DNA of 64,000 bases from Candidatus Paracaedimonas acanthamoebae (GTDB taxonomy: Bacteria; Pseudomonadota; Alphaproteobacteria; Caedimonadales; Caedimonadaceae). Positions 17,585 through 64,000 of the stretch are shown in pieces; position 1 is the first letter of the stretch, and the number at the start of each line of letters is the position of its first letter. The stretch lies in assembly GCA_017307065.1 (NCBI GenBank), contig JAFKGL010000010.1:9500-73499 (forward strand). Direction: 5' to 3'. The notes beneath the pieces were generated by a model that did not search any database, was not told the origin of the DNA, and saw nothing but the letters and a program-made list of their open reading frames with translations. The position numbers and the translations under genes were made by a program.

Positions 17585-18239
17585 TCTCCTATTCTGGTGT
17601 TTTATGGGGAGTGGTTGGTTGATTTCTAATTTTGCATACGCAAAAATTAAAGAGCAACCTATTGAAAAGGCAGAAGTTCCGATCGAAATTAATTCTGATA
17701 ATGGAATTATCTGTGAGCGTGATAAAAATATGTGTACGGCTTATGGAAATGTTGAAGTGATCCATAAAGCGTACAAATTAAAGTGTGACAAGCTCGTAAC
17801 GTATTTCAGATCAACAGCACATTCAAAAAATGAATTATATAAAATTGAGGCAAGTGGGCATGCCATCATGAGTTCTCCTGATAAAATTATTGAAGCTGAA
17901 CTTTTGAAAGCGCATATCAAAAAAGATGCAACAAGAAAATATAATCTTGATGAAATTGAGGCCTTTAATAACGTGATTATTGTGACCCAAAAAGAAATTG
18001 CGAAAGCGAAATATGGTCATTATCAACCAGAGAAGGATGTCGTAATATTAAAAGAAGATGTTCAAATCACAAACGAAGAGGGGCAAATGCATGGTGCTTA
18101 TGCTGAAGTTGACCTCGACAAAGGCATCAGTAAAATGTTAAGAAAATCTCCAATACAAGAACAAGATAAAAAAGTAAAAACCGCACCGAATCGTGTAAAA
18201 GTGCTTATTTTACCTAAAACGCAGAGAACAATAAGATAA
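17574..18239 (+). CDS. lptA: LPS transport periplasmic protein LptA (OstA-like)
   Basis: Signal peptide from the internal ATG ([24 protein letters not shown]), OstA-like repeats and synteny before lptB. The start overlaps the lptC end by 11 nt. Confidence 0.72.
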
Positions 18240-33415: not shown

Positions 33416-33634
33416 TTAACAATTTGCAATAGCTTCGTCATATTCGCGATGAATGCGTTCTATTTCGCGTTGTCTATCATGAGGTAGAATGTCGCGATTT
33501 TCTCTAATGCTATCAAGGGCATGATCTCTATTTTCACGCGCTCTCTCTCTACATTGTTGTGATGCATCAGTAGCTTCAGCGCCACTCACAAAACAACCCA
33601 ACATAATGGATGTAAGTACTATTTTCTTTAACAT
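33416..33634 (-). CDS. Small secreted Arg/Glu-rich protein bracketed by two cysteines
   Basis: ATG at 33634 lies 7 nt after GGAGA. Signal peptide MLKKIVLTSIMLGCFVSGAEA/TD. The mature ~51 aa carry RENRD twice, with Cys near both ends. Confidence 0.5.
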   Translation of the reverse strand: MLKKIVLTSIMLGCFVSGAEATDASQQCRERARENRDHALDSIRENRDILPHDRQREIERIHREYDEAIANC

Positions 33635-33780
33635 TTGTTTCTCCATGTAAATAGTTAATAACAATCTAATTAAATGATAAAAATATTAATAAAGACTTAA
33701 TATTAACTAAATTAAAATTGTTTTTTTAAACACAAGTAGGCTGAACATGATTCATTTTAGTCTAACATCAATTAGTTGAT

Positions 33781-34127
33781 ATCTTCCAGAACTTGCGAGA
33801 TCCTAAACGTTCCAGAGTCGATTCCAAAAATGCTCTACTTCTCCCTCATTTTCACCCTGCCTGTCACGCACGCTGAGGGGTTTCCCTTCTCTTTCATCAG
33901 GCAAAGAGAGGGTATTCGCTCAAAAAGAGCGTTGAGGCTTTATTTCTTCTCCTAAGTAAGGATTTTAATCCCTATTTTAGTCTTTTTCTTGAGGATTCAT
34001 GTCAGAGAGAGTGAAAGGATTATAAGGTTTTGCAAGGCCTGTATAAGATGCGAAATACTCTCTTATCATCCTATTACTAGCCTATCATAATATGATACAT
34101 TTTTCAAGGAAATTCGATAAATGTACT
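33781..34127 (-). repeat. Copy A of the dispersed intergenic repeat family (candidate structured RNA/leader element), minus orientation
   Basis: Collinear by-eye alignment over about 340 nt with 61236-61545 (+), including the near-identical core gaggcaaagaga(a/g)gg(c/t)attcgctcaaaaagagcgtt (written here on the plus strand of copy A). Confidence 0.6.
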
Positions 34128-39653: not shown

Positions 39654-41357
39654 ATGGGTAAACAAAAAAAAACTGAACATTTATGGCTAAAGAAATATCC
39701 TGAAGATATTTCTTGGGATGTTCAATTTACTGGCAAGCCCGTTTATGACTTACTTGAAGAAAGCGCTCGCAGATTTCCTACAAGACCATGCATTGATTTT
39801 TTAGGGAAAAAATTTAGTTACCAAGAAGTTTTGTCGCTTGTGAATAAAGTTGCGAAGGGATTACAAAATCTCGGCGTTAAAAAAGGCACAAAAGTGGGTA
39901 TTTTTATGCCTAACGCGGCTTATTTCCCCATTTTTTATTTTGGAATCTTAAAAGCAGGGGGCGTTGTCGTCAATTATAGTCCTCTTTATGTCGTCCAAGA
40001 AATTGCAGATCAGATTCGGGATTCTGAAACTGAAATAATGGTGACTCTTGATCTTGAAGTTCTTTATTCGAAAATTCTTGCAGCACAAAAAGAGACAAAG
40101 TTTAAAAAAATTATTATTTGTCCCGTTAAAGATATCTTGCCTTTCCCTAAAAATATTCTGTTCCCATTGTTAAAACGGAAGGATCTCGCAAATATGTCAT
40201 GGGATCAGCATCACGTTCGTTTTAAAGAGCTCATTAATAATGAAGGGAATCCTAAAGTCATCAAGATTGATCCTCAGGAAGACATTGCCGTTTTTCAATA
40301 TACGGGCGGCACCACAGGGTTACCTAAAGGCGCCATGCTAACGCATGCGAATATCTATATTAATGCTCAACAAGCTCGTCTGTGGTTCTCAAAAGTTAAT
40401 GAAGGAAATGAGCGTATTTTAGCGGCTCTCCCCCTGTTTCATGTCTTTGCAATGACAGCTATTATGACATTCGCAATCAGATCTGGCTCAGAAATGTTCA
40501 TGATGTTTCCACGATTCAATGTGGATGAAGCCATGAAGATGATTCAAAAGCATAAGATTACATTTTTTCCTGCTGTTCCAACAATTTATACAATGATTAA
40601 CAACCATCCTAATATTAAGAATTTTAACTTAAAGAGTTTGAACGCATGTTTATCAGGAGGGGCGCCTCTTCCTATCGAAGTCAAAAAGAAATTTGAAGAG
40701 TTGACGGGGTGTAAGCTTGTAGAAGCTTATGGACTTTCAGAAACATCGCCAGGCGTCACCTCTAATCCTTTTTACGCCCTTAATAAAGCAGGGTCTATAG
40801 GCATTCCTTTACCCGGGACGGAAGTCCGCATTATGTCTTCTGAGAAAAAAGATCAAGAAGTTCCTCAAGGAGAACGAGGAGAAATATGTATTAAAGGTCC
40901 TCAGGTGATGAAAGGTTATTGGAAGCGTCCTGAAGACACACAGAGTGTATTCCAGGGGGATTATTTTCGGACAGGTGATATCGGTTATATGGATGAGGAT
41001 GGATATATTTTCCTCGTGGATCGACTGAAGGATTTAATAATTTGTAGTGGGTATAATGTTTATCCTCGAGTTGTTGAAGAAGCCATTTACCAATATCCAG
41101 ACGTTGAAGAAGTAACCGTGATTGGTGTGCCAGATAAGAAACAAGGGGAAAGCGTTAAAGCTTTTGTAAAATTGAAATCAGGAAAAAAAGCTGATCCGGA
41201 TGACATAAAAAAGTTTCTACAAGACCGTTTATCCGCTGTTGAAATGCCACGATATTTTGAATTTCGGGACACGCTTCCCAAAACGATGATTGGAAAATTA
41301 TCTAAGAAAGAACTTCGAGCAGAAGAATTAAATAAACCAACTAAAAAGGCAACTTAG
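39654..41357 (+). CDS. fadD: Long-chain-fatty-acid--CoA ligase
   Basis: AMP-binding signature YTGGTTGLPKGA, GYGLSE-type motif (AYGLSETSP) and C-terminal GKLSKKELR. Confidence 0.92.
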   Translation: MGKQKKTEHLWLKKYPEDISWDVQFTGKPVYDLLEESARRFPTRPCIDFLGKKFSYQEVLSLVNKVAKGLQNLGVKKGTKVGIFMPNAAYFPIFYFGILKAGGVVVNYSPLYVVQEIADQIRDSETEIMVTLDLEVLYSKILAAQKETKFKKIIICPVKDILPFPKNILFPLLKRKDLANMSWDQHHVRFKELINNEGNPKVIKIDPQEDIAVFQYTGGTTGLPKGAMLTHANIYINAQQARLWFSKVNEGNERILAALPLFHVFAMTAIMTFAIRSGSEMFMMFPRFNVDEAMKMIQKHKITFFPAVPTIYTMINNHPNIKNFNLKSLNACLSGGAPLPIEVKKKFEELTGCKLVEAYGLSETSPGVTSNPFYALNKAGSIGIPLPGTEVRIMSSEKKDQEVPQGERGEICIKGPQVMKGYWKRPEDTQSVFQGDYFRTGDIGYMDEDGYIFLVDRLKDLIICSGYNVYPRVVEEAIYQYPDVEEVTVIGVPDKKQGESVKAFVKLKSGKKADPDDIKKFLQDRLSAVEMPRYFEFRDTLPKTMIGKLSKKELRAEELNKPTKKAT

Positions 41358-61102: not shown

Positions 61103-61235
61103 AGGGATAATTTTCATCTCTCCTTCGTAACAATAGTTCAAACTTCCCTAGGTTGCTGTTGAGACAGCTTCTCGGCAGTGTGCAAGTACTATGATAGTTG
61201 AGAGCATGACGAATCTCTTAAATTTTTTCATTCTT

Positions 61236-61545
61236 GTACCAAATTTGCTTGAATTTTGTATCGTTTTGTGATAGTCTGGTAGTAGATGGTTAGAAATGAT
61301 TCCTTCTTATGAAAAGAAGACCTCTCTTCATAAACCCTTTACTCAGTTTCTGAACCCATCCAATAAGAAGAATAATAAAGGGATGAAAACCTAAATTATT
61401 AAAGAAAGTAAGCCTTTTAACGCTCTTTTTGAGCGAATGCCTTCTCTTTGCCTCGTGAAAAGACAAGGAAAGGTCAGGAAGGATGATATTCAGGAGGTTA
61501 TTCTCGGGCTTGTCCCGGGGATCTCGGGCAACCTGGTGATGTAAC
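61236..61545 (+). repeat. Copy B of the dispersed intergenic repeat family (candidate structured RNA/leader element), plus orientation
   Basis: Collinear by-eye alignment with 34127-33781 (-) and, for the first ~90 nt, with 14905-15000 (+). Conserved core at 61410-61468. Confidence 0.6.
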
Positions 61546-61614
61546 TAGGTGGCAAAAGGATCTCAGCATACGTGAAAGGTATGGTGAGGAGAAAAGCCAA
61601 AAAGCAAGAGGAAG

Positions 61615-61677
61615 GGCTTTCTTTTCAAGAAATATCTCTGATCTTTGTATCAAAGATTCTTGAGAGGAAAGAAAGCC
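61615..61677 (+). other. Long imperfect hairpin inside the ORF-free region
   Basis: ggctttcttt-tcaagaa-atatctctg-atcttt-gtatc-aaagat-tcttga-gagg-aaagaaagcc. Three nested helices (10, 6-7 and 6 bp). Confidence 0.5.
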
Positions 61678-61869
61678 GAGAAATCTCAAAATTGAGACGA
61701 GGCCTTTTCTTTTTTTATTAACTCTACTTTGGCTGTCCTTGCGAATGTGAGGGGCATAGTAAGGGAGATAAACCCCAAAAGCATGCAAGAGGGGATTAAA
61801 AGGAAAGACAGACTTATTTTTGGATTTTTCGACAGAAGGTCTTTTCTCTCTATGAAAGGGCATTTCACC

Positions 61870-61893
61870 CTTTCCTGAGTGCACTCAGGAAAG
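61870..61893. repeat. Perfect 24-nt palindrome
   Basis: ctttcctgagtg/cactcaggaaag: the two halves are exact reverse complements. Confidence 0.8.
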
Positions 61894-62367
61894 ATTTGGG
61901 ATCCTGGAGAATGAGCAAGGATGATGAAGGCGTAAATGGATAGGAAGTAAAAAGGGTCTTACAGGTTTCTCCTTTGTTGTTCTTGCGACTCTCTCCCTCT
62001 TTAGGATGAAAAACATCGAATGGGGATAGGGGAGATCTTAAGGTTACTTGAGATCCTAAGCACAGGGCCGAGGATAATGAAAGAAAAGAGGGCTTTGAGC
62101 TTATGGGCGAGAACTGAGTGGAAATAAGAATGAATAAAGAAAGGAGGAAAAGGTTTAGACGTAAAAAGTTAAAATCTCATGATCTGCAAGCCCATCTACA
62201 TCAGGACATTATTAACGACTTTTTTCTAAAAAACTTGTACATGACATAAAATTAAAAATTTTTAATAAAAAAGACTAAAATTGTTGGAAGATAGTTGAAA
62301 GCTAAGCTACATTCTGGCAACCTCTTAAAGAGAAACACGTTTAATTTTTAACAAAAGAGTGAGGATA

Positions 62368-64000
62368 ATGGAAATCTATTATATTATTTTAGGGTGTGGG
62401 CTTTTAGCTTTGCTCTATGGCTTGTATGCAGGGGCGCAAGTTCTTAAAGCCCCCAAAGGAACAGCCAGAATGATTGAGATTGCAGCTGCTATTCAAGAAG
62501 GAGCTGCTGCTTACTTAAATCGTCAATATAAAACAATTGCAATGGTTGGTTTTGTTGTTGCCGCAGGATTATCTTGGGTTCTTGGTTGGCACGTCGGAGC
62601 GGGCTTTGTTATGGGGGCGGTACTTTCTGGAATCGCGGGTTACATTGGAATGAACGTCTCCGTTCGTGCAAATGTAAGAACAGCTGAAGCTGCAAGATCT
62701 GGATTACAACCGGCGTTAGACATTGCTTTTAAAGGCGGTGCAATTACGGGGATGTTGGTTGTTGGTTTAGGACTTCTCGGAATCACTCTTTATTTCATGA
62801 TCTTAAAGAATAGTCATTATGAACAACGTGCGATCATGGAAGCCTTGATTGCATTAAGTTTTGGCGCTTCGCTCATTTCTATTTTTGCTCGTTTAGGGGG
62901 GGGTATCTTCACCAAAGGGGCAGATGTCGGCGCAGATTTGGTTGGTAAGATTGAGGCAGGAATCCCTGAGGATGATCCCCGAAATCCAGCTGTTATCGCA
63001 GATAACGTGGGTGATAACGTGGGTGACTGTGCAGGAATGGCAGCTGACCTTTTTGAAACATATGTGGTCACGATTGTTGCGACAATGGTGTTAGGCACGA
63101 TTTTCATTAAGGGAGACATAGCCGAAACCTTAATCCTATATCCTTTATTGATTGGGGCGGTTTGTATCGTTGGTTCTATTTTGGGAACTTTTGCGGTTAA
63201 GCTTGGTAAGCAACAAAACATCATGGGTGCTTTGTATAAAGGGCTCTTCGTTTGCACGCTTTTATCAGCAGGTTTTATTATGCTGGCAACTCAAAAATTA
63301 GTCGGCTTTGAGCAAACTTTCATGATTGGTGACCTCGTCGTTGATGGAACTAAGCTTTTGATTTGTGCTTTCACAGGTCTTGCCGTAACTGGTCTTCTTG
63401 TGTGGATCACAGAGTATTATACCTCAACAGCGTATCGTCCGGTTCGAAGCATTGCTTCTGCTTCTCAAACAGGCCATGCAACCAATATTATTCAAGGTCT
63501 TGCAGTATCTATGGAATCTTGTGCATTACCAGTGCTCGTGATTTCTGCAGGTATTCTTATCGCTTACACCAATGCGGGGCTTTATGGAATTGCAATTGCG
63601 GCAACGGCAATGTTGGCTTTGGCGGGAATGGTTGTTGCATTAGATGCCTATGGTCCGATCACGGATAACGCGGGTGGTATTGCTGAAATGTCTGAACTTC
63701 CAAAAGAAGTTCGTACGGTAACAGATGCTCTTGATGCTGTTGGAAATACAACGAAAGCCGTGACTAAGGGATACGCGATTGGATCTGCTGGTCTTGCAGC
63801 GCTTGTATTATTCTCTGCTTATACTGAGGATTTAAACCATTATTTCCCCGGCTTGAATTGTGCCTTCGTTCTTCAAGATCCGTATGTTGTAATTGGTCTA
63901 TTCATTGGTGGCTTATTGCCTTATCTTTTTGGGGCAATGGGGATGATGGCTGTCGGTCGTGCTGGTGCGCAAGTCGTTGTTGAAGTCCGTCGTCAATTCA
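62368..64000 (+). CDS. hppA: K+-insensitive pyrophosphate-energized proton pump (H+-PPase), 3'-partial
   Basis: Not in the track because there is no stop within the window. ATG at 62368 follows GAGGA. N-terminus [24 protein letters not shown], then [21 protein letters not shown] and [19 protein letters not shown]. Continues beyond 64000. Confidence 0.95.

Follow-up and report, generated by a model that had tools for sequence, protein, structure and literature searches.

A clade-restricted family of dispersed elements with a promoter-like box and a conserved, putatively RNA-level fold in Caedimonadaceae

The 64,000-nt stretch of contig JAFKGL010000010.1 analysed here (the window, in whose positions all coordinates are given) holds two copies of a dispersed element. 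Copy B lies on the plus strand in the spacer between ctaG and hppA, which is 1,265 nt long (61103-62367); copy A lies on the minus strand. Both begin with a promoter-like 5' box, continue into a core that would fold as RNA into six helices (P1-P6), and end in a variable tail. They belong to a family that is real, previously undescribed and restricted to one clade, and that falls outside any Rfam family and outside the classical definitions of miniature inverted-repeat transposable elements (MITEs) and repetitive extragenic palindromic (REP) sequences. The principal features of the two copies are as follows.

61235-61277, plus strand: copy B promoter-like box (TTGAAT at 61249-61254, a 17-nt spacer, TG at 61269-61270, TAGTCT at 61272-61277)
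61278-61486, plus strand: copy B core, P1-P6 (covariance model 187 bits, E 5e-40)
61283-61362, plus strand: copy B P1-P3 domain, with the P3 hairpin at 61306-61333; then P4 at 61371-61400 and P6 at 61439-61473
61419-61438, plus strand: copy B invariant 20-mer AACGCTCTTTTTGAGCGAAT, which contains the P5 hairpin (61421-61435)
34079-34122, minus strand: copy A promoter-like box (CTTGAAAAATGTATCATATTATGATAGGCT at 34108-34079)
33866-34078, minus strand: copy A core, P1-P6 (covariance model 133 bits, E 7e-28), with the 20-mer at 33933-33914

The initial annotation, made from the sequence by eye, had proposed that B and A are homologous and inverted, and alignment bears this out. Blastn matches B 61242-61471 (plus) to A 34114-33882 (minus) at 70.5% identity over 244 columns (E 3e-18), and the Smith-Waterman score of 123 exceeds that of every one of 200 shuffled controls (22.5±2.4, maximum 31), by more than 40 standard deviations. 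The promoter-side, middle and core blocks of the original alignment are each significant alone (z 11, 10 and 27, respectively), and the one block described as almost identical proves to be the 20-mer, exact in both copies against a chance expectation of 0.01 matches. The description of old, diverged copies of a dispersed family also holds: identity is about 70%, and the many indels (gap sizes 1, 2, 4 and 6 nt) mostly are not multiples of three. Two further claims did not survive. The proposed 3' block (B 61519-61543 versus A 33804-33781) is not significant by itself, and the tail homology lies elsewhere: the best match pairs CTCAGCATACGTGAAAGGTATGGTGA (B 61562-61587) with CTCAGCGTGCGTGACAGGCAGGGTGA (A 33877-33852), at z 4.8 and with paired changes, so that, compared with A, copy B has about 88 additional nt (61474-61561). 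The discarded block in B may be a relic of a GC-rich hairpin module. A shorter third copy was not found in the window by a two-copy nhmmer profile, a family nhmmer profile or the covariance model; the best extra match (E 0.36) is unrelated sequence, and the candidates inspected, at 17694-17800 and 40084-40112, are unrelated.

The initial annotation had proposed a scan of the genome for further copies; the family was found in other genomes, with 22 members in reference genomes and 38 in metagenomes. The 20-mer has 22 exact matches in a one-genome-per-species GTDB collection (185,579 species or reference genomes), all in three genomes: 'Ca. Caedibacter acanthamoebae' CP008936 (seven), Caedibacter sp. 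38-128 (six), and sp. 37-49 (nine). (CP008936 is taken here as Ca. Paracaedimonas acanthamoebae, Holosporales, Caedimonadaceae; the older name is absent from the NCBI taxonomy.) A metagenome scan returned 41 matches, 38 of which are full-length members by the covariance model. Three metagenome contigs (L032, L037, and L063; labels of this form denote the loci and contigs retrieved) carry the exact 20-mer in mutually homologous, coding-looking sequence; these are non-members, and the only matches outside the family. Because the sample comprises copies that have the exact 20-mer or lie next to ctaG, the count is a lower bound of at least 6-9 copies per genome; one sp. 37-49 copy, detected by the covariance model, has the variant AACACTCTTTTTGAGTGAAT instead. 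The window itself, which derives from an uncultured relative, encodes a CtaG 92% identical to that of P. acanthamoebae, and several metagenomes contain identical contigs. CtaG identity drops to 62% in the next relatives, whose ctaG loci differ in synteny and lack the element.

Database searches gave the family no name. At gathering thresholds, Rfam reported only tRNAs in the whole window and 22 related loci; at E values up to 10, the regions around A and B gave only sub-threshold matches far under gathering scores. The search of Rfam that the initial annotation called for has turned up no known-RNA identity, be it a group II intron domain, a riboswitch, 6S RNA, tmRNA or a known alphaproteobacterial sRNA. 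Plasmid, phage and viral collections contained no family matches. Within the clade, paralogues are about 70% identical to one another and lie largely at orthologous positions across species: the ctaG-hppA spacer in five assemblies, a site at acs in four, a site at a portal gene in two, and a rodA-tRNA site in two. Two CP008936 copies (L008 4594-4812 and L016 4345-4563) are identical throughout the core and for at least about 400 nt beyond it, with different flanking genes, which indicates recent segmental duplication or gene conversion. The orthologue of the L016 locus in sp. 38-128 (L025) holds a different element subtype. This confinement to one clade had escaped the initial annotation, as had the fact that copy B heads a polar, composite block about 1 kb long.

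The family's 5' edge is the AT-rich AAATTTTTTCAT, followed by gAATTTTCTTGAwaTTTGTAnC-N4-TATGgTAGyCT. Over 21 distinct copies the elements TTGA, TTTGTA, TATG, TAG and CT are near-invariant, and the layout TTGAwa-N17-TAGyCT, with TG one base before the hexamer (-15/-14), is present in all. The box reads, by sequence likeness and by a conservation profile that follows the −35, TG and −10 positions, as a σ70-like extended −10 promoter. Its pattern matches the window only twice, at A and B, where no match is expected by chance, and the window's tRNA genes have canonical σ70 promoters. In copy B, as elsewhere, the spacer of the box holds the conserved TTTGTAnC. Likenesses to the RfaH ops element and to σ32 and σ54 promoters, judged by eye only, were too weak to retain.

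Single-sequence folds of the roughly 215 nt after the box repeatedly give the same six helices: P1, UAGAUGGUC with GACCAUCUA; P2, CAGAGA with UUUCUG; P3, CUUAUGAAG with CUUCAUAA; P4, AAUAA..AGG..CCU..UUAUU; P5, the hairpin CGCUC-UUUUU-GAGCG, invariant apart from one swap; and P6, CCCUCUCUUUGCCU with AGGCAAGA..GAGAGGG, in which a CU-rich strand is clamped to a GA-rich strand. This hand-drawn structure was converted into a covariance model (R1), with which 35 distinct copies were realigned. In that alignment 81.4% of the cells pair, a share that falls to 47.5% or less once partners are shifted by 1-3 columns, and 24 of the 49 pairs change on both sides (91 cells), a level reached by none of 500 shuffles. 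In P3 seven of eight pairs are compensatory and six different versions of the helix are all complementary; in inner P4 two of three pairs are compensatory and AGG/CCU switches to GAG/CUC. The P5 variant is a single compensatory double change, from G-C to A-U, and in one P6 subtype the apex is swapped for another hairpin while the basal CU/GA stem is kept. Compensatory helices, the generic criterion for a structured RNA, are present in an alignment that was fitted to the drawn structure, and argue for a fold of this kind. Copy B has a fold z of -2.48, its minimum-free-energy fold reproducing the helices; copy A has one of -1.35. An all-against-all helix scan on the MAFFT alignment was too noisy to use because of purine-rich and pyrimidine-rich runs.

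The paralogues keep their pairing at only about 70% identity, which argues for selection rather than recent copying. There is good evidence, from sequence comparison, for RNA-level constraint on the family. Coding explanations were set aside. A protein-coding gene or pseudogene is rejected by the non-triplet gaps and by antisense open reading frames (ORFs) over A and B that read the 20-mer in different frames; a type I toxin or small-peptide locus is rejected because neither strand has a conserved ORF.

The core is followed either by a variable number of GC-rich hairpin modules (P7, REP-like and M2) or directly by a gene. The tail features of the window copies are:

61474-61561, plus strand: insert in B relative to A, with a GC-rich REP-like hairpin at about 61503-61520 and the discarded 3' block
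61562-61587, plus strand: copy B P7 hairpin, CAUAC-GUGAAAG-GUAUG, homologous to A 33877-33852
61588-61900, plus strand: further hairpin-rich module, 87-91% identical by blastn to L010, L016, L041, and L050
62008-62110, plus strand: module M2 (GGCATCGAATGG..GAGATCCTAGGCACAAGGCCTAGGATGAC type), co-oriented with the core (nhmmer E 1.6e-20)
33852-33877, minus strand: copy A P7 hairpin, directly after P6

P7, with the loop GUGAnAG and covarying stems, is present in about half of the copies, at variable distance from the core. A small ORF after P6 (AUGAUGCUG...) was considered and rejected, since it occurs in a subset only, a one-base deletion shifts its frame, and the stretch belongs to the P7 hairpin. 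The REP-like palindromes are of the type GAGATCC-YNRGG-CACAAG-CCYNRG-GATGAC and occur in both orientations. The insert in B includes the module TCCCGGGGATCTCRGGCAACC, which occurs once in the window and recurs at related loci, and an opposite-strand M2/REP match (61497-61544). The module at 61588-61900 is common to orthologous loci and to one paralogous locus (L016); within it lies a perfect 24-nt palindrome, CTTTCCTGAGTG/CACTCAGGAAAG (61870-61893), with no T-run after it.

The tail is strictly polar. An M2/REP profile gave 99 matches in the window and all fetched loci (about 0.5 Mb; some loci are duplicate contigs, counted within the 99), and every one lies 31-1376 nt downstream of a core. 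None was found upstream of a core, elsewhere in the 64-kb window or in core-less loci, and all strong matches are co-oriented with the core. The DNA downstream of the core is 58-60% purine on the element strand for more than 500 nt. The short copies (L018, L049, L047, and L020) lack modules altogether, their next ORF starting 94-305 nt past the 20-mer. Within the tail, motifs resembling AGGAUGA turn up repeatedly. A CsrA sponge was rejected, for the recurrent GGA motifs are base-paired in the M2 hairpin.

The copies are also oriented with respect to their neighbours. When orthologous loci are treated as one group, about 15-16 of 19-20 groups have their next credible gene running in the element's direction (binomial p about 0.01, by our own arithmetic). 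The downstream genes are diverse: H+-pyrophosphatase (hppA), acetyl-CoA synthetase (acs), NADP-malic enzyme (maeB), glyQ, and PBP1A; a PpiD-like gene followed by pntA (identified by eye); a solute-binding/transporter fusion; pentapeptide and other secreted or effector-like proteins; and phage-type portal genes (in two species) and capsid genes (in one). Downstream of copy A the next co-directional ORF is:

33416-33664, minus strand: 82 aa, N terminus signal-peptide-like, tail charged and rich in Arg/Glu

The other loci contain no homologue of this ORF, which may be spurious.

These observations suggest a general model, in which each copy would be a transcription-start cassette from which a structured RNA runs toward the next gene. 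Selection would act on this RNA and not on the DNA alone; the invariant P5 hairpin would probably be where one shared factor, a protein or an RNA, docks; and scattered genes would receive a shared input in the form of a long structured leader. Two arguments carry the model. First, paralogues about 70% identical keep the helices, the box, the 20-nt hairpin and their orthologous sites, which argues for selection on a transcribed RNA, unlike decaying transposon copies. Second, the placement of the conserved box at a single end, the polar tail, the purine skew and the bias in gene orientation all favour the same reading. The initial annotation had offered a portable leader, promoter or small RNA (sRNA) module as one option, and given the promoter-like box, the covarying helices and the orientation bias, that option fits best. 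We assign a transcription-start cassette making a structured leader a probability of roughly 0.5. In kind, the element would be a bacterial structured non-coding or leader RNA tied to a reused promoter (PMC3575422).

A number of points weigh against this model. Transcription, its start site and strand, the binding of a factor and the effect on the downstream gene are all what we infer from the patterns above, and this counts most for start site and strand. A simple σ70 consensus scan does not call the box, which scores below the 9/12 needed, and the conserved TTTGTA in its spacer has no explanation. The covariation counts come from an alignment fitted to our own structure. De novo RNAalifold, on both MAFFT and covariance-model alignments, recovers only inner P4 and P5 (eight pairs), because the helices do not line up between copies; even the fitted alignment leaves P6 and P1 poorly in register, with 52-79% of their cells paired. 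Strand preference is slight: counts of G-U versus A-C favour the forward strand weakly (151 to 112), and whole-structure pairing is 80.8% forward versus 78.7% reverse. In neither window copy was an intrinsic terminator or expression platform found behind the core. In four locus groups the element and the next gene converge, and next-gene distances are often 0.6-1.9 kb, long for a leader. Finally, the hppA-proximal 101 nt are kept in all lineages, with or without the element, so hppA retains its own signals and the element is dispensable for it.

A possible, if doubtful, alternative is that the copies are stand-alone non-coding RNA genes (paralogous trans-acting sRNAs or longer RNAs), in which the core and module tail are the RNA and the neighbouring genes are incidental. 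The functional site would then be the CU-rich strand of P6 or the invariant hairpin, acting for example by anti-Shine-Dalgarno pairing or protein titration. The copies' own promoter-like box and covarying helices would suit such genes; so would the variable and often long distances, the four convergent groups, the dispensability for hppA, the strict tie of the modules to the core, as if the two were one RNA, and the recurrent AGGAUGA-like motifs. However, the window copies lack an intrinsic terminator after the core, and paralogues have no common 3' end. The orientation bias toward downstream genes and the gene starts directly behind short copies also speak against this alternative, and the GGA motifs of M2 are base-paired rather than displayed in loops.

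More speculative, and rather unlikely, is a further reading. The family would be a new regulatory RNA leader class whose P5 hairpin is read by a protein or small molecule, in the manner of processive antitermination or a riboswitch, so tying a scattered regulon of an obligate amoeba endosymbiont to one signal; or it would be a promoter cassette that spreads via its own RNA. The candidate regulon would comprise energy and pyrophosphate metabolism (hppA, acs, maeB, pntA, and glyQ), envelope genes and the portal and capsid loci. Spread through the element's own RNA would explain RNA-level selection without a nearby transposase.

The element might instead be a selfish, non-autonomous mobile or recombining DNA cassette that carries a promoter incidentally, spreads through ectopic recombination or transposition and has no host function. 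At ctaG-hppA, filled and empty sites can be compared. The spacer is only about 120 nt long in L076 (3517-3636; CtaG 88% identical) and about 135 nt in L075 (2005-2139; CtaG 78% identical), with no element in either. Aligning filled and empty sites delimits a block of about 1.03 kb (61235-62266) with copy B at its 5' end; the start at 61236 given by the initial annotation is essentially the true 5' boundary. The block's edges are:

61223-61234, plus strand: left junction repeat AAATTTTTTCAT, directly 5' of the element and conserved in many paralogues
62254-62266, plus strand: right junction repeat AAAAATTTTTAAT; the L076 alignment resumes right after it, and the same junction is found in L010 and L070
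62267-62367, plus strand: hppA-proximal spacer, the last 101 nt, conserved in filled and empty loci; hppA (Pfam H_PPase, assigned on identical contigs) starts at 62368

On either side of the block stands an imperfect direct repeat of 10-13 nt, rich in A and T, with AAATTTTTTCAT on the left and AAAAATTTTTAAT on the right; each empty site has a single instance of the junction motif (GATTTTTCAT in L076). Because the left repeat doubles as the family's conserved 5' edge, a target-site duplication is indistinguishable here from microhomology. The 3' end of the block is common to orthologues only and not to paralogues, and terminal inverted repeats are absent from both the core and the 1.03-kb block. 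In a neighbour-joining tree of CtaB and CtaG, a weak one, L075 is basal and L076 is nested between carriers; one gain with one loss, or two gains, would account for this equally well.

The ~1.03-kb block missing from two lineages, its flanking repeat, the near-identical duplicates L008 and L016 in one genome and the composite build with REP-like palindromes give a selfish cassette some appeal, and promoter reuse by mobile sequences is on record (PMC3575422). We nonetheless consider it unlikely. The flanking repeat may be microhomology at the family's own 5' edge. Terminal inverted repeats and a conserved paralogue 3' terminus are lacking; the exact-20-mer copies number only 6-9 per genome, are about 70% identical and mostly sit at orthologous positions; and plasmid, phage and viral collections lack the family. 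The compensatory changes and the invariant 20-mer point to purifying selection rather than to neutral decay. No transposase-like ORF was found in the listed or scanned flanks of the window copies and related loci, which upholds the earlier remark that no transposase is nearby. Indirectly, this result and the lack of matches in the plasmid and phage collections also bear on a reading as the end of a known IS element. The MITE-like element also suggested there does not hold in the strict sense, with no terminal inverted repeats, no common paralogue 3' terminus, few and old copies, compensatory pairing and no partner transposase seen. A leader, a stand-alone RNA and a selfish cassette are not mutually exclusive: a cassette could spread first and be retained later.

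Very unlikely is a purely DNA-level module, a promoter with a palindromic operator (CGCTC-N5-GAGCG) for a dimeric regulator, in which the RNA has no role. The invariant block is indeed operator-like, a 5-bp inverted repeat with an invariant spacer, and the promoter-like box is strongly conserved, spacer included; but the palindrome lies about 150 nt downstream of that box, the approximately 200 nt between them keep the P3 and P4 helices by compensatory changes, and the P5 variant alters both halves while pairing is kept. Chance similarity, or a relic of a duplicated protein-coding gene, might be entertained for an AT-rich region in which short antisense ORFs overlap both copies, but is refuted by the shuffled controls (more than 40 standard deviations), 60 further members, non-triplet indels, antisense frames that differ between A and B, and a one-base deletion that shifts the only recurrent AUG-led frame after P6.

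The transcription-start cassette with a structured leader can be set beside several known systems. Reused or 'mobile' prokaryotic promoters are closely similar, promoter-bearing upstream sequences found before unrelated genes, within and between related genomes (PMC3575422). This family likewise is a promoter-carrying upstream unit at unrelated genes; however, its unit is at least about 260 nt long and mostly covarying RNA, its copies are old (about 70% identical), and its tail of hairpin modules is polar.

Multicopy sRNA families of the Alphaproteobacteria (αr14 or 'cuckoo' RNAs, and AbcR) are intergenic paralogues with their own promoters, conserved hairpins and C/U-rich motifs. The present family also is multicopy and intergenic, and combines a box, hairpins and C/U-rich motifs, whereas its RNA would be much longer, no terminator was found, the copies face downstream genes, and the family occurs in one Holosporales clade and has no Rfam match. 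Riboswitches and other cis-acting leaders resemble it in having several copies per genome upstream of metabolic and transport genes, conserved junction and loop nucleotides, and covarying stems; they differ from it in that it has no recognisable expression platform or terminator, no Rfam riboswitch match, heterogeneous genes and an often distant start codon.

Correia elements can carry promoters and be co-transcribed with neighbouring genes. With these and the REP/BIME, REPIN and RPE repeats the family shares the GC-rich, imperfect palindromes behind the core, which are REP-like and occur in both orientations. The core, in contrast, is non-palindromic and lacks terminal inverted repeats, the copy number is tiny, and across the roughly 0.5 Mb covered the palindromic modules are confined to sites downstream of a core and are not general intergenic repeats.

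The invariant block includes GCTCTTTTTGA, which matches 9/11 of the boxA consensus GYTCTTTAANA (PMC5725501), with both A positions being T; that consensus is γ-proteobacterial and may not be the clade's own. As in boxA leaders (rrn leaders, lambda nut, and suhB), the motif is promoter-proximal and lies beside hairpins. Here, however, it is locked in a hairpin stem and loop, and no rRNA was found downstream of any copy, so an rRNA-leader reading is rejected. At 9/11 boxA membership is likewise rejected, and the partial likeness is a lead, from sequence, for a possible antitermination role. A long, Rho-resistant leader would fit the next-gene distances of 0.6-1.9 kb, and the antitermination reading would gain strongly if the clade's own rrn boxA were GCUCUUUUUGA-like.

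Holosporales endosymbionts are not genetically tractable, and to our knowledge almost nothing is known of their gene regulation. A promoter-plus-RNA cassette before about ten unrelated loci per genome would offer a handle on a regulon, and is a candidate new Rfam family. Copies 70% identical that keep their helices and a 20-nt hairpin are direct evidence that, in a reduced genome, selection acts on an RNA. Moreover, modules confined to positions behind the core, together with the filled and empty ctaG-hppA sites, provide a tractable case for the gain, expansion and loss of promoter-bearing sequences.

Several smaller observations concern individual loci. Between the ctaG stop and the element lies an extra stretch of about 105 nt (61118-61222) that includes CAGTGTGCAAGTA..GATAGTTGAGAGC; sp. 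38-128 (L011) lacks this stretch, whereas P. acanthamoebae L010 and the paralogous L008 have it. GATAGTTGAGAGC recurs as GATAGTTGAAAGC in the hppA-proximal spacer (62290-62302). In sp. 37-49 (L070 4716-6050) an opposite-strand gene of 444 aa, with a faint LRR_6 match as its sole Pfam match, lies between ctaG and the element, which is 1.7 kb from hppA at that locus.

The phage-type genes match Pfam Phage_portal and Phage_capsid, and a family copy precedes each. A portal gene is accompanied by a prohead-protease-like ORF (identified by eye) at L013 and L026, and a capsid gene by the next ORF at L017; these are separate loci, which probably form a dispersed gene-transfer-agent set. At L018, the ORF that starts 115 nt after the 20-mer encodes a 624-aa protein with no Pfam match and with proline runs (FAPPPPPSG..FAPPPPPPPAPG), which by analogy are reminiscent of actin-regulator mimicry by intracellular bacteria.

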